From contig OZ024753.1 in NCBI GenBank assembly GCA_964016885.1, positions 46,562,001 to 46,626,000 on the forward strand: a stretch of DNA of 64,000 bases, given 5' to 3'. Position numbers and translations under genes: made by a program. Origin of the DNA: Eledone cirrhosa. Lineage: Eukaryota. The notes under the pieces were generated by a model. The model worked only from the letters and a program-made list of their open reading frames with translations. It had not been told where the DNA came from and searched no databases. Below are positions 7,273-50,404 of the stretch, in pieces (positions within the stretch are counted from its first letter, which is position 1; the number at the start of each line of letters is the position of its first letter).

Positions 7273-9772
7273 GTCCTTTACATGTCTGAGGAATACTCAA
7301 TCACATGTAATGTTAATTTCATGATCACGATGTTCCGTTGATCAAACAACTGGAACATTGTCATCAAAACCTTATATTCCATCTATCTGTGTGTATGAGA
7401 ATAGTGTCGCTTAGCTATTGGTCAACCTTGATTAAGGGCACTCCAATTATGAGCATCTCATCTTATTTCTGTGTCCAATCTATATTGTCAAAAACAATGT
7501 AGCTATGTCTTATTAAAGTACGTGTCACTCAAGTAAATTTGGCTGCTATTTTATAAAGACTCCTTTGTTGGCTCATATGAGAAATGTGTTTACATTCACA
7601 TATAAAATGAATTACCATACTAGAAAATGAACATGTTTTAATCAAATCTGACCTAAATATATATTTATGATATAAAACTTTTCTTACTAAGATTAAAATA
7701 ACATTTTAAAAAAATATGTTTTTCTCTTAATTTGAACTCTTAGGTTTCAAATTTCCCATTCTAATACATAGAGCTGTTGATTTCTTATCTAAATCAGTAT
7801 GTCTGTATCATCATCATCATCATCGTGTATCCACTATGCTGGCATAGGTTAAACAAGTCATTATAACCTAAGTCAGTTTTATTCAGTTATTACCTTCCTA
7901 GGTAGTCTGTGGATCACATCTCATTACATTTCATGTACTAGGTGTGTTTTATCAAGGCATTAGCACAAAATAGATTGCCATGCCCTTGATATAACTGAAG
8001 AGTTCTCTCTACCCTATATTTTCCCTGCCAACCACTTTACAGAGTATATTAAATGCATTTTATCATGGCACCAGTACCAGAAAAGTTGTCAAGTCCTCAA
8101 TAAAACTAAAGAGAGCTTTCTCCACCCTGCAATGACTTTTTTTGTTGACTAACAACTTCACATAGTGTACTGGGTACACTTTATCCTATCACCAGCACAA
8201 GAGGTTGTCAGGCATTCAGTAAAAGTGAAAAGTCCCTTCTGCTCTATATTATATTATCTCAAAGTGGTGACATACTAAGGTGGACATAAGCAAGGCAATT
8301 CTCCATTGGAAATATTTTATCAATAGAATCAATACATACTAAACCATGTAGAAAAGTCTTGGCAATCAGTTGCATTCAGTGACTAACCTAGATTTTGTTG
8401 CCCATCAGGTCAAAGAGGGCACGCCTATTGAAATATTAGTCACTCTCTGGTAGATTTGTAATGAAACCTGTAGCAGTGAAAACTTCTGGTATTCTTGCCA
8501 CCTCGACCACATTCCTGGAGGGGGAGTTTAATGGGGTCATGAGCACTACCTTTCCTACCACCAGTCACAGGGGCCATGAAGGTGGTCATTGGTGTGGCCA
8601 CCTTTACTACCACAAGTCACAGGGGCCTTCAATGGGTTGATGGACACTGCCCTCTCCCTTCTAAGTCATAATTAAAAAATTCTTTGTTACATGGGTGCCC
8701 ATCTAGTCACCATCTAGTTCCTAGATGATGTTCTACTTACTTCTGTTGATAACTAGGTAAACTGAGGAAGTGGTTTAGAATATAAAATATCTTGACCTTG
8801 AAATCACCATAAAACACAACATATCACACCTAGAAAATATTAGAATTACACAGGGCTGTAATTAAACAGCTACACAGCACTTGTTAGATAACACTCAATA
8901 CAAGTTCAATACATGACACCCTGGTCTATGAGCAGTTTGTCCTCTACCTTATAAACTCAACCAGTTAAATTCTACTCAATAAAAGATGAAGCAATGACAG
9001 CTAGAAATACTCATTAAGTACATTGTTTGTTGAGCCACTTTGGTTACAATAGTTCTGCTACTTATGGCAGAACAGACCATAGTTCTTCAACAGAAGAACT
9101 AACAGTGATTCAATATATATATAGAACTGCTAGACTAATTACCACAGTGACCCCATTAACAGCTAGCTCATTAGATCTCCAGTTCTTCAGATAATTGTAA
9201 TAGCTACAACCACTACCACAACAACAACAACCAGAGATATAGCAATAGCCACACACTCTTTTCTCTATAAATAGATACTCTGCACTCTAGGTGCACTTTG
9301 GTTATTTCAGTATTAAGAAGAATATTGAACAACCATATGCGTATGTGTGTCTTTATATCACATGACATAGCAGTTCAAAAAGAGTTGATTAATAAAATAA
9401 GTATTGGGGTTGATTTCATTGACTGATCAAAACAATATCCCAGCATGATCATAGTCAAATATATATATCATCATAATCATCATCATCATCACAGTGTTCT
9501 GCATTGCAAGGCAGTGTGACAGTATGTTGTTGAGAAAAGGTGTGTTAGAAATAACACTGGTGTACTTAACACCACTGATGCTCAAAAGAACGTGATCTGG
9601 AAATGTTACCTGCTTACAGTGTGGGACCATATGTAGGTGATATATATGTATACATACACATACATAGACTCATATATATATATATACATATATAAGTCAG
9701 AATGGATGCAGTAAAACCTGTTTAGACCATTACACACCAGAGTACTCAATACTTGGGGTAGAGTAAGGTAAA

Positions 9773-9858
9773 ATGAAAGAGTTGGGACCCTAACAGCTGA
9801 GCTCTTGCCATTTGTTGAAACGGCAAGAGCTCAGCCTTCAAGGCCCCGACTCTTTCAT
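9773..9858. repeat. Imperfect inverted repeat (inverted duplication of a hammerhead-like 3' half)
   Basis: Arms atgaaagagttggg/cccgactctttcat and gctgagctcttgcc/ggcaagagctcagc. Confidence 0.85.
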
Positions 9859-9894
9859 ATATATATGTATATATATGTATATATATATATATAT

Positions 9895-10050
9895 ATATTT
9901 ATTAAAATAACAGATTAAAGTTTATGCAAAGAATCGCTGCTTTCACCCTTAACGGGATCTTCTGAAACTAACCTTAGTTTCAGAAGATCCCGTTAAGGGT
10001 GAAAGCAGCGATTCTTTGCTTAAACTTTAATCTGTTATTTTAATAAATAT
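9895..10050. repeat. Near-perfect palindrome, 77-bp arms, 2-nt loop, one mismatch
   Basis: 9895-9971 is the reverse complement of 9974-10050 except at 9925/10020. Confidence 0.95.
9977..10025 (+). ncRNA. Variant type-I hammerhead ribozyme-like fold (core CAGAAGA)
   Basis: Stem I GUUU/AAAC, core CAGAAGA, stem II U-CCC-GUUAA-GGG-U, GAAA, stem III A-GCA/UGC-U, CUU triplet. A second copy lies at 34979-35027. Confidence 0.55.
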
Positions 10051-47184: not shown

Positions 47185-47370
47185 GGATTGGCAGTATCAG
47201 TAGAGGGTCGGATGCCATGCTTTGACGTAAAGAGTTACGTCCCTTTATGATCTGAGTTCAAATCCCGCCGAGGTTAACTTTGCCTTTCATCCTTACGGGG
47301 TCGATAAAATAAAGTACCAGTAATGTACTGGGTAATTGCTGGCCTTGTGCCAAAAGTAGAAACAATTATT
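47185..47370 (+). mobile_element. SINE family B copy
   Basis: Full head, core and tail. Confidence 0.9.
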
Positions 47371-48289
47371 TTGTTGTAATTATTCTCATTTGATATTCCA
47401 CAACACCATTCCAATATTCTGACTTTCCATATTCATATATTCTGACATTCTTTACCTTGAGACAATACACACCACCATATTAGTTAGATGGAAATTATAA
47501 AGAAAATTTAATTTAATTCCTTAAACGGAATTTACCAACATTTTTATACATTCCTGTATGCATACACATGTGTTTGTATATGCATATATCTAAGTGTGTG
47601 CGTATCTATGTATGTTTGTATATGTGTGTGTATATGTATCTATGTGTGTTTGTATATGTGTGTATGTATGTTTGTATATGTGGAAAATCTGAATGTTTTG
47701 TATATTTTTACATGTTTTTGGCTGTAATAGTTGTTGTACCTTAATTAAAATTTCTCTGTATTTTACTATATTTATTGTGAAACACCTGCTTTATTTCGTT
47801 TACATTGATTTAGTCAAACTATAATACAGCTGTAACACATACCCCACACACCACACACACACTCACACACACACACACACACACACACACACCACACACA
47901 CATACACACCACACACATATACACACACCACACACACACATACACACATGTAAGTGATGTGTGTCAGACCTTCACTAGTTCCAATTATTAGTGTTCCAGT
48001 TGATTCAATCAATGGAACAGATTGCAAGTGGCTGAGTATTCCAGAGCCATGTCTATCCGTAATATAGTTCTTCGAAAGATTTAGTGTAACCCAGGGGAGA
48101 TAAGAAGGTTGACCATTTTAACTACAACTCATTATAGCCAATATAAGATACAGTCACTTGTTCAAGGACACAATGTGCCAACTGGTATTGAACTCTGGTG
48201 ACATAAGAAAGCAAAAATCCAACTTACCTGTCAGGTATAATAGTTTTGATCTTTAGTCCCCAGTTTATTGCCATTGATGACATTTCCTT

Positions 48290-48570
48290 CATTACTGACC
48301 CCCTGCCATTCCTTTATTACTGGCCTCCTGTCATACCATTATTACTGGCCCCTGTCATACACTTATTACTGGCCCCCTGTCATACCCTGATTACTGGCCT
48401 CCTGTCATACCCTAACCTCTGGCCATACCCTGGCCTCCTGTCATACCCTGATTACTGGCCTCCTGTCATACTCTGGCCCCCTGCCATACCCTGGCCTCCT
48501 GCCATACCCTGGCCCCCTGTCATACCCTGACCCCCTGTCATACCCTAACCTCCTGCCATACCCTGTCAAG
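48290..48570. repeat. Minisatellite tggcc(c/t)cctgtcataccc
   Basis: Tandem degenerate units. Confidence 0.88.
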
Positions 48571-50404
48571 GTGCTCTACAACATATGGTAGCCCACTATG
48601 ACCAAGTAAGGCAGCTCTATGTGACTTGGAGCTTCGTCTCGATTCTGAAGACTTCCTTCCCAATACAATCAGACATTTCTTCTCTAATAAAACTTCATTT
48701 CTGTCTCTCAGCAGAAGAAAGTTTTTTTACTAAAAAAAATGTACAAAAACTATTTATGACTTATTTGCTGATCCCTGCTCTGAGCTTGAAATTTGTAACA
48801 TGTACTATCACACACACACACACACACACACACATGCACTCACACGCACACATACACGCACTCATACACACTCACACATATACACACACACTTACACATA
48901 CACCTGTAAATGACTGAGTATGTAGGGTGATAGGGTGAGTTGGTCATGCTACTACAAGCTTTTTATCAACATTGATGTTGTAAACAAATAGAGGTTCTTC
49001 TACTTTCCTTCTTCTTCTTCTTCTTCTTCTTCTTCTTCTTCTTCTTCTTCTTTATGAGACTGTTGCTATCCCAGGTTGTTGTTCACCTGACCGAGGTCAG
49101 TGACCAGGGCCCCAAGTACATGTTGATGATGCCATGAAGATATGTGACCAACTTAAGCAGGATTTCATTCCTGCTACAAAATAAATGCATTTCTGATGAT
49201 GTACATATATGTATATGCAATTATTTGTTTTATATATATAGGTATTATGTGTATATTTATATACATGCAAACACACATTCACACACACATACTCACACAC
49301 ATTCACAGACACACAGCAATAAAAAGGAAGAGAGAATGTTTCTCCCCCTCCCTCTCCTCTGATCTTTGACTTCAGCTCTGGGGCAGATATCTTTGATAGT
49401 TCCACTAACAACATGATCTCCCTCCCTCTCTCCTCTACCTTCTCCTCCTCTCCACATGAAATTCAATCAAAGACACCAATTTCTTTTCACAATGTTTACA
49501 GTATTAATTTCCTTATATTTAATGTTTCACTGTTTTGTTTGTTTGAACATTTGTCTGTGTGTACCTGTGTCTATGTCTGTCTGTGTGTACCTGTGTCTGT
49601 GCCTGTCTGTGTGTGTGTGTCTGTGTGTGTGGTATGTGTGTGTGTGAGTATGTGTATGTGTTTCTATGTGTATCTATGTGTGTGTGTCTGTTTTATGATC
49701 TCTGCATGCTCCTATGTGTATGTTTGGATATATGTATGTGTCACAAATATGTATGTGTCTGTGAGTGTGTGCATGTTTGCGTGTGTGTATGAAAAATATA
49801 AATTATCTTTTTTAATAAATATACAATTTCAGTTTCACTGTGGAACTTAAATAAAGTGGTTTAACTCTGTATGGATAGAAAAGAGGGGGATAAATCTGGC
49901 TAGTTTTTGGTCTTATTAGATCCTCATCAGAGTACTGTAGGAAAATTTGCAATGTTGATTAAATAGTATATTAGCCCTTACAGTCTTTATTATTCCCAAA
50001 ACACTGTGGTGCATTAACAATTAATATACATATATAAATATATAAATATATATATGTTTATGTATATATATATATGTATGTATGTATATATGTATATGTA
50101 TATATATGTATGTATATGTCTGATTTTCTGGTAAGTATACAGGTAAAACTCCAAAGTAACAAGACTCACTACTTAGCAATAATAAAGAATATTTAAACTC
50201 TACTTCGGTATTGAGTACTTATTTCACATCAGGTTCACACATATATATATATATTCATTTATATATATGTGTGTGTATATATATATATATGTGTGTGTGT
50301 ATATATATGTGTGTGTGCGTATATATATATATATATATATGTAGATAAATCTACCAAGAGTTTACGGTAGTGTCCAATATGCCAATTCTAACACATATAT
50401 ATCT

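Follow-up and report, generated by a model that had tools for sequence, protein, structure and literature searches.

Short inserts in the TA repeats of a 64,000-nucleotide stretch of Eledone cirrhosa DNA (contig OZ024753.1 of assembly GCA_964016885.1, forward-strand positions 46,562,001 to 46,626,000; hereafter the window) had been predicted from their letters alone to share a small hairpin, RCTC-NNN...NNN-TY-GAGY, in which a 2-nt bulge separates an outer from an inner stem and which lies downstream of hammerhead ribozyme folds. This raises the question of whether the hairpin is real, to which elements it belongs and what it does. We found that it is a shared feature of the Hydra clade of Penelope-like elements (PLEs), beyond the seven window copies, and from its position relative to both insertion ends we infer a role in setting the site at which reverse transcription starts. 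The clade is already known; the hairpin and its spacing rule are apparently undescribed. A search of the open literature (Penelope with conserved hairpin and hammerhead), with subscription papers, Repbase and Dfam outside its scope, found no description of the hairpin, and the word 'hairpin' is absent from the available main text of the published account of the Hydra clade (PMC8557442). For this and the other papers cited below, statements refer to the portions of the source that were available.

All seven hairpin strings were present at the predicted coordinates and on the predicted strands (Table 1), five of them matching the full descriptor and two having one inner mismatch. At locus 2, one of these two, position 10059 is often G in reads of the same species (4 of 23 listed runs, aligned to 9690-10145), so that a G-U pair is regained. 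The shared fold was therefore as predicted, but the supposed dissimilarity of the inserts did not extend to the hairpin itself, whose primary sequence is largely conserved (RCTC-YRC...GYA-TY-GAGY-RC). When the window was compared with two sets of 150 local dinucleotide shuffles, the five full-descriptor matches exceeded the shuffle means of 0.33 (maximum 3) and 0.31 (maximum 2), whereas a relaxed descriptor requiring two of the three inner pairs gave 7 matches against a mean of 1.7-1.8 and a maximum of 7, which is not significant by itself. When every descriptor built in this way was scored across the repeat-masked window as a look-elsewhere test, RCTC/TY was outside the best eight. Folding stability is ordinary (z of -0.3 to -1.6), with the full fold being the minimum free energy structure in five of the seven copies. 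With the relaxed count matched in shuffles and no distinction for the descriptor in the look-elsewhere test, the window evidence alone is only suggestive.

Outside data settle the reality of the hairpin. We searched the window with two covariance models built without window sequence, R1 and R2, the latter from 31 non-window matches. With R2, six of the loci took the first six places (E from 1.6e-6 to 1, these E-values being rough) and the seventh came 10th of 15; with R1, four took the first four places and a fifth came 7th of 10. The hairpin belongs to no Rfam family: the sole Rfam 15 match among nine hairpin-bearing loci was one tRNA. In the window itself, none of the 150 listed of 390 weak Rfam 15 matches reached the gathering score, and these matches were rejected as palindrome and microsatellite artefacts.

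In its general form the motif reads GCWC, inner stem, 2-nt bulge, GWGC and RC. The supplement of PMC8557442 (File S7) gives six new Hydra-clade consensi and, read by eye, four of them contain the hairpin letters, one as a variant; coral, sea-cucumber and (variant) copepod consensi are among the carriers. Hydra-2_Amil has the exact hairpin after its hammerhead, Hydra-2_Ajap has one with a TA bulge in the same place and Hydra-1_Crog a variant with an outer mismatch, while Hydra-1_Ajap has two hairpins at its 5' start, before the ATG. All three consensi that extend more than 60 nt past the hammerhead have the hairpin there, and all three that end at 30-47 nt do not. Five 3'-anchor strings occurred nine times in this supplement, four times in Hydra hairpins and five times elsewhere without a matching 5' stem (by eye). 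The motif is consequently part of named consensi as far as its letters go (Hydra-2_Amil, Hydra-1_Ajap and Hydra-2_Ajap), the structure being unmentioned in the available portions of that paper.

A hammerhead-only pattern, chosen without reference to the hairpin, gave at least 120 loci and at least 127 matches in metagenome contigs (7 of 64 parts), at least 76 of the matches having stems I and II; the counts below are limited to matches with enough flank. Among the matches listed, the strict hairpin lies downstream of 20 of 71 valid hammerheads, upstream of 1 of 56 and antisense to 0 of 71, and it lies downstream of 3 of 49 matches that fail the stem filter. All 29 viral matches to the pattern were due to chance (0 valid), and of the 28 that could be counted none had the hairpin downstream. 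The 71 hammerheads (among the matches listed) divide into 26 with anchors, 37 short-ended relatives and 8 that could be assigned to neither group; the short-ended ones are kin of hairpin-bearing families and diverge by +60. Two families, with 37 and 15 matches among those listed, dominate these loci. The C-terminus of the open reading frame (ORF), the hammerhead and the hairpin are contiguous in L063, L083, L117, L121 and L130, whose ORF pieces are Hydra endonuclease C-termini; full-length proteins related to these pieces contain RWK, DKT and CxCX5C. A protein-based scan yielded 12 loci, eight with an evaluable 3' end, and by eye six of these carry the hairpin (L152, L154, L155, L159, L160 and L161); L151 stops early in a TA run, L157 diverges right past the hammerhead and the other four loci are cut or rearranged. 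In viral contigs the Hydra protein profile gave 134 candidates and no confirmed locus. A weak control is provided by two other, non-Hydra PLE families within the same TA runs (L151:6314/7411 and L161:359/4224), whose four copies have palindromic stem III hammerheads and no hairpin of their own. The outside data therefore agree with the original prediction of a conserved, covarying cis-acting element 3' of the hammerhead in TA-targeting Penelope-type elements, and identify the group as the Hydra clade.

We used an anchored count and an alignment fitted to the structure by a covariance model (A5) to assess covariation, because MAFFT alone misplaces the inner stem. Selection by anchors only gave 31 distinct instances with 17 inner-stem types, in which 45 of 51 inner pairs are formed, compared with a mean of 27.2 and a maximum of 43 in 20,000 shuffles; one more 3' anchor had no 5' anchor. 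Alignment A5, which includes two probable chance rows (L156:543 and L121:221+), agrees, with 19 double-change cells against 3.6 (0 of 500 shuffles), a figure qualified by the fitting of the alignment to the structure and by the relatedness of the sequences. The first inner-stem pair is U-A or C-G in every case. For the outer stem, the letters are GCTC/GAGC in 29 of 31 instances and GCAC/GTGC in two, and the window adds ACTC/GAGT; its third pair covaries too (GCAC/GTGC in L152 and L157). Compensatory change, described earlier for both stems, is thin inside the window and is found in related loci for the inner stem and outer pair 3. The bulge, supposed to be a fixed pyrimidine pair, is not: TT occurs 23 times, TA five times and TC three times among the 31 related instances, the first T being imposed by the anchor. 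Three other identities for the motif were rejected. Only an extra match at 15572 fits hammerhead stem III, as six of the seven loci have no GAA before RCTC, and related loci hold stem III (in Hydra often ACTC-n-GAGT) and the hairpin as separate structures. A switch via pairing with stem III fails since families whose stem III is unrelated still have the hairpin, and a coding motif fails since the reading frames differ and one has a stop.

On sequence features, the related loci L150-L161 are assigned to the Hydra clade. The Hydra proteins (P0001-P0120) have a single ORF of about 700 aa with YRDD in 118 of 120, and reverse transcriptase (RT) is followed at the C-terminus by a GIY-YIG endonuclease, which Pfam matched in one of four scanned fragments. 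In alignment A1 (30 proteins) R37/W38, D116/K117 and C564/C566/C572 are invariant and T118 is present in at least 90%, i.e. RWK, DKT and CxCX5C are all present, and the complete element in L155 is about 2.6 kb, within the 3 kb limit for Hydra elements. Like the Hydra clade of PMC8557442, these loci combine a (TA)n target, a canonical type I hammerhead near the 3' end and a short ORF with RWK, DKT and CxCX5C. Naiad and Chlamys elements, which have an N-terminal endonuclease and no canonical hammerhead, are different, since the related loci have a C-terminal endonuclease and hammerheads. L150-L161, animal Hydra-clade elements with TA runs, are on contigs filed as bacterial metagenome-assembled genomes, probably as a result of host contamination of the assemblies. 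The window inserts, unlike the Hydra-clade elements of PMC8557442, have no ORF, and Pfam found no PLE domain in the 86 of 135 candidate window ORFs scanned; this is expected because the inserts are stubs of 120-290 nt. They do lie in (TA)n, as predicted, in six of seven cases, which reach a TA run 24-63 nt past the hairpin, and for insert 2 the presence of TA on either side is borne out by reads; locus 4 reaches a TA run only at 339 nt. The inserts appear to be 5'-truncated or non-autonomous Hydra-type ends.

The role of the hairpin is indicated by the geometry of the insertion ends. Coding elements have the order first hairpin (hp1), tail, second hairpin (hp2), ATG, RT/GIY-YIG ORF, hammerhead, short end, hp1, tail and long end. 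The two hairpins are 55-74 nt apart in eight loci, and in six of the eight the second lies 13-40 nt ahead of the ORF start. In the largest family (among the matches listed) 24 of 39 copies end at +41 to +43 from the cleavage site and eight at +108/109, with hp1 beginning at +47; three more copies are cut by contig ends. Of the 55 copies with a short end, 32 stop 4-6 nt ahead of hp1 and 41 stop 0-6 nt ahead of it, a spacing that holds while the distance from hammerhead to hairpin ranges from 39 to 61 nt. A long end about 5 nt before hp2 was predicted in writing before L155 and L152 were read, the only loci with both a long end and a 5' UTR or tandem copy; the distances are 5 nt (L155) and 4 nt (L152). 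In these two families the long end falls just 5' of the position that hp2 has in the 5' untranslated region (UTR), so the 3' end never receives a copy of hp2. Inverted pairs consist of a long and a short arm in 10 of 10 related loci and in three of three window inserts. The complete copy in L155 lies between TA runs, begins at hp1 and has the hp1 tail repeated at its 3' end, and four of six tail-only copies begin 3-12 nt before hp1. In L036 and L142 an internal deletion between short repeats removes hp1 just 3' of the hammerhead, and the long end is kept.

Inserts 1, 2 and 6 of the window have the same arrangement, an inverted 5'-truncated copy with a one-sided tail, which is the architecture of endonuclease-positive PLEs. 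One arm halts in a TA run, at a distance of 8, 2 and about 4 nt, respectively, from where the hairpin would begin, and the other runs through the hairpin plus 38-63 nt more. In insert 1 it is the plus arm that stops at the short end (~9857), the hairpin being 8 nt 3' of the short end, and in insert 6 it is again the plus arm, about 4 nt ahead of the hairpin position. Reads of the insert-2 family stop in TA runs at 10050 (short end) and ~10144 (long end), and the tail is family-wide.

We consider it likely on balance that the hairpin docks the RT-endonuclease and sets the start of the cDNA about 4-6 nt upstream. The protein would bind the hairpin on sense RNA, nick (TA)n DNA and prime internally at a fixed distance 5' of the hairpin, aided by TA microhomology; a dimer could then start from both nicked strands, one by way of hp1 and the other by way of hp2, and the joining of two cDNAs head to head would produce the one-sided tail. 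The earlier suggestion of an RT recognition or priming signal accords with the position of the hairpin relative to both ends, which points to a start-site role. More tentatively, it is possible that a twin-priming cycle takes place on one RNA, with a dimer at hp2 and hp1 and the tail as an R-like terminal repeat. In such a cycle the cDNA started at hp2 would reach the RNA 5' end and then join the other cDNA, giving a tail-only copy plus an inverted short arm, as in L091 and L103; alternatively it would jump to the 3' tail copy, or run round a circular RNA, giving full-length copies and partial tandems.

Several points weigh against the start-site role and the generality of the hairpin. The fold is thermodynamically weak, and the shuffle statistics are inflated by the relatedness of the sequences. 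The window has no Hydra ORF remnant (tblastn with 120 Hydra proteins, none at E<=0.05), any copy in the cephalopod consensus Hydra-1_Obim of PMC8557442 is degenerate at best (by eye), and 8 of 71 hammerheads and the 3' ends of L151 and L157 are without a hairpin, not all of them being shown to be short-ended. The long-end rule comes from two loci and one consensus read by eye, and the short-end counts mostly from two families; the short-end distances in the window are 8, 2 and 4 nt. Both ends fall on target-matching TA/AT steps, so that microhomology makes the distance uncertain by as much as 4 nt and may in part determine it. Lastly, the start region of Poseidon, a PLE of another clade, as printed in Fig. 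S1 of PMC11167929, has no bulged GCTC/GAGC hairpin, and the analogy drawn with Poseidon below is therefore functional only.

The end positions could also arise if the hairpin marked an RNA processing site, the element protein or a host nuclease cutting about 5 nt 5' of each copy and ordinary target-primed reverse transcription then beginning at the 3' end, although we consider this unlikely. Such cutting would explain why 5' ends cluster too (L155 at hp1, Hydra-1_Ajap of PMC8557442 2 nt before hp1, Hydra-1_Crog 6 nt before an hp2-like stem, and the tail-only copies as given above), and the RNA-seq read ends at the Poseidon start sites, a further point against our preferred reading, fit RNA cutting as well (PMC11167929). 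However, in vitro the Poseidon RT product is of unchanged size on 3'-extended RNA, i.e. the start is internal on uncut RNA (PMC11167929), and transcription start at hp1 or collision with a second RT accounts for the 5' ends equally well. It is rather improbable that the motif acts as DNA, being recognised by the GIY-YIG endonuclease as a duplex or as a hairpin in single-stranded cDNA, or resolving an intermediate. The near-invariance of the outer stem and flank would suit this, as would the requirement of the D. virilis Penelope endonuclease for the tail in recognising plasmid DNA, as cited in PMC11167929; yet the inner stem covaries freely, so a single strand is needed, the non-Watson-Crick pairs are mostly sense-strand G-U (L040, L117, 17291 and the 10059 variant) against one A/C (33466), albeit in few cases, and the long ends keep a fixed distance from hp2 while having no hp2 in their DNA.

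Regulation from the 5' UTR (internal promoter, translation or RNA stability), with the ends set by TA microhomology alone, would be consistent with the two hairpin copies right before the ATG, with the insertion ends at TA/AT steps and with the internal promoter near the 5' end of Penelope (PMC2377424). This is distinctly unlikely, as many TA steps are on offer in these AT-rich regions, yet the ends are sharply placed and follow the hairpin in families that differ in the distance from hammerhead to hairpin, and the strict pairing of long with short arms would go unexplained. Very improbable indeed is the reading of the window matches as partly chance or as the decayed remains of a single family, without a function in common. 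The relaxed count, the look-elsewhere test and the non-significant folding z would allow it, but an independent covariance model places six of the seven loci on top, elements of unrelated animals have the motif at the same position and at least two high-copy host families carry it; this reading has already been largely refuted.

The remaining features of the window are collected in Table 1. Strict hammerhead scans found no intact canonical hammerhead 5' of any of the seven hairpins. The hammerheads expected 20-60 nt upstream were recognised by eye as decayed or variant forms at loci 2, 4, 5 and 7, with the cleavage site about 25-58 nt ahead of the hairpin, and the hammerhead cores of the window inserts are decayed or variant only, with Hydra-style stem III at 15569 and 50146. 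In the extra copy this stem III occupies 15569-15581 (+) and reads ACTC-n-GAGT-A. The insert-2 family has, in a type I hammerhead that is otherwise well formed, CAGAAGA in place of CUGANGA in all three window copies (9981-9987, its mirror and 34983-34989) and in read contigs, which is probably either a dead ribozyme that is still spreading or an unusual variant; exact searches of viral and metagenome contigs gave no match to this family. The GGT(G/T)(A)ACC word said to follow several copies is confined to loci 3, 5 and 7, and AATAAA is not a constant part of the motif, an A-rich tract often following stem I. The window inserts, being single or inverted pairs, do not fit non-LTR retrozymes, in which every one of the tandemly arranged units has an intact type I hammerhead (bioRxiv 10.64898/2026.07.22.740005).

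Table 1. Hairpins, inserts and hammerheads of the window (positions counted from its first nucleotide).
Feature	Position	Strand	Remarks
Hairpin, locus 1	9744..9764	-	ACTC-TAC-cccaa-GTA-TT-GAGT; full descriptor; top covariance-model match, E 1.6e-6
Hairpin, locus 2	10053..10098	+	GCTC/GAGC outer stem; long inner stem with a single C/T mismatch
Hairpin, locus 3	17291..17309	+	ACTC-TGC-tat-GTA-TT-GAGT; full descriptor with one inner-stem G-U
Hairpin, locus 4	33466..33491	-	one inner A/C mismatch
Hairpin, locus 5	35125..35174	-	full descriptor; 34-nt loop; within insert 5
Hairpin, locus 6	39504..39523	-	inner stem wholly replaced (CAA/TTG); full descriptor
Hairpin, locus 7	50197..50216	+	C-UUCG-G loop; full descriptor
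Extra decayed copy	15569..15634	+	hairpin 3' half 42 nt beyond Hydra-type stem III; absent from the original list
Insert 1	9695..9857	-	inverted pair in TA repeats; tail and hairpin on minus arm
Insert 2	9899..10136	+	inverted pair; high-copy family
Insert 3	17230-17352		decayed hammerhead fragment and hairpin
Insert 5	35078-35361		hairpin with 34-nt loop
Insert 6	39441..39644	-	inverted pair; tail on minus arm only
Insert-2 family, third copy	34979..35052	+	hammerhead, short end into TA run; no tail, no hairpin
Type I hammerhead, insert 2	9977..10025	+	variant core CAGAAGA; minus-strand mirror 9920-9968
Hammerhead fragment	17239..17258	+	damaged core and stem II, insert 3; by eye
Decayed hammerhead	33516..33552	-	5' of the hairpin at 33466; by eye
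Decayed hammerhead	35224..35261	-	cleavage site 58 nt ahead of hairpin; by eye
Decayed Hydra-style hammerhead	50117..50161	+	cleavage site 38 nt ahead of hairpin; by eye

Degenerate-looking hairpins, unscored by the covariance models, also lie in two further TA-bounded inserts, at 38671-38814 (+), with a 3' half at 38734, and at 18022-18090 (-). An insert at 33823-33912 (-), also TA-bounded, has an intact-looking type I hammerhead with a variant U3-A8 core and a long loop II; it stops about 70 nt further on without a hairpin, and may represent another PLE clade or a counter-example. In the reads, a second and far commoner family matches insert 1 only over 9725-9761, the hairpin region, its loop being 3 nt longer and its flanks unlike those of insert 1. 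A large inverted repeat at 15417-16019 has 174-nt arms (96%), each with 37-nt tandem units and a Hydra-type hammerhead remnant. The window as a whole is AT-rich, microsatellite-dense animal DNA, of which 37% was masked as tandem repeat. It has broken RTE-like LINE (long interspersed nuclear element) copies (RVT_1, PHD) at 4030-6570 (+) and 37733-38311 (+), Tc1/mariner transposase remnants at 11566-12207 (-) and 30784-31400 (-), and at ~15000-15086 (+) a short exon, flanked by AG and GT, for an RRM-like peptide, which we take to resemble CELF/Bruno proteins; the window is probably intronic DNA of a CELF/Bruno-like gene.

The choice of internal RT start and the inverted insertions with one-sided tails have been a puzzle of PLEs for two decades. 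Now that a motif of 20-30 nt is in hand whose spacing to either end follows a rule, a few mutants would suffice to test how the tail arises, and in genomes of marine invertebrates the motif can serve to recognise non-autonomous stubs of Hydra type. It also suggests that a small telomerase-related RT, of about 700 aa, is directed by a compact cis signal when it inserts from an RNA template. If the twin-priming cycle is true, it would provide a portable 25-nt signal for internal RT initiation and would mean that a target-primed retroelement related to telomerase makes a strong-stop-like transfer.

PLE RTs are sister to telomerase RT, and both the hepadnavirus epsilon element and the telomerase template-boundary elements are bulged hairpins that dock an RT and fix the start or limit of copying. 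Epsilon serves protein priming and the telomerase elements repeat addition, neither being target priming, and we know of no sequence or family match between them and the Hydra hairpin. In stringent LINEs and SINEs the 3'-tail stem-loop is located upstream of the RT start, and every insertion receives a copy; the Hydra hairpin differs in being downstream of the start that it would set and in being present in two copies. The comparison with the 3'-tail stem-loop of eel UnaL2 (PMC1636434), a small conserved structure with a bulge or internal loop that is needed in cis for retrotransposition, is one of how it works. The Hydra account in PMC8557442 ascribes the tail to endonuclease-mediated resolution and, in its available portions, mentions neither a hairpin nor a 5' UTR motif present in duplicate, nor any connection with the ends, while PMC3846280 proposes self-priming on an antisense template for inverted structures. 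The closest functional parallel comes from Poseidon, whose RT starts internally at two sites bounding the tail and needs RNA 3' of them, to +172, and whose protein, a predicted dimer, nicks and extends both strands with no need of hammerhead cleavage (PMC11167929). Poseidon PAc resembles the Hydra elements in having two start sites or ends that bound a tail 3' of the hammerhead, and inverted insertions with a one-sided tail (PMC11167929, PMC3846280). It differs in belonging to another clade, in starting inside the ORF in an 'AC-rich stem loop' and in having a tail of 30-40 nt, compared with about 60-70 nt in Hydra elements (PMC11167929). That study left the RNA binding motif undefined (PMC11167929), and by analogy the Hydra hairpin would sit just where a motif of this kind should be, once per start site.

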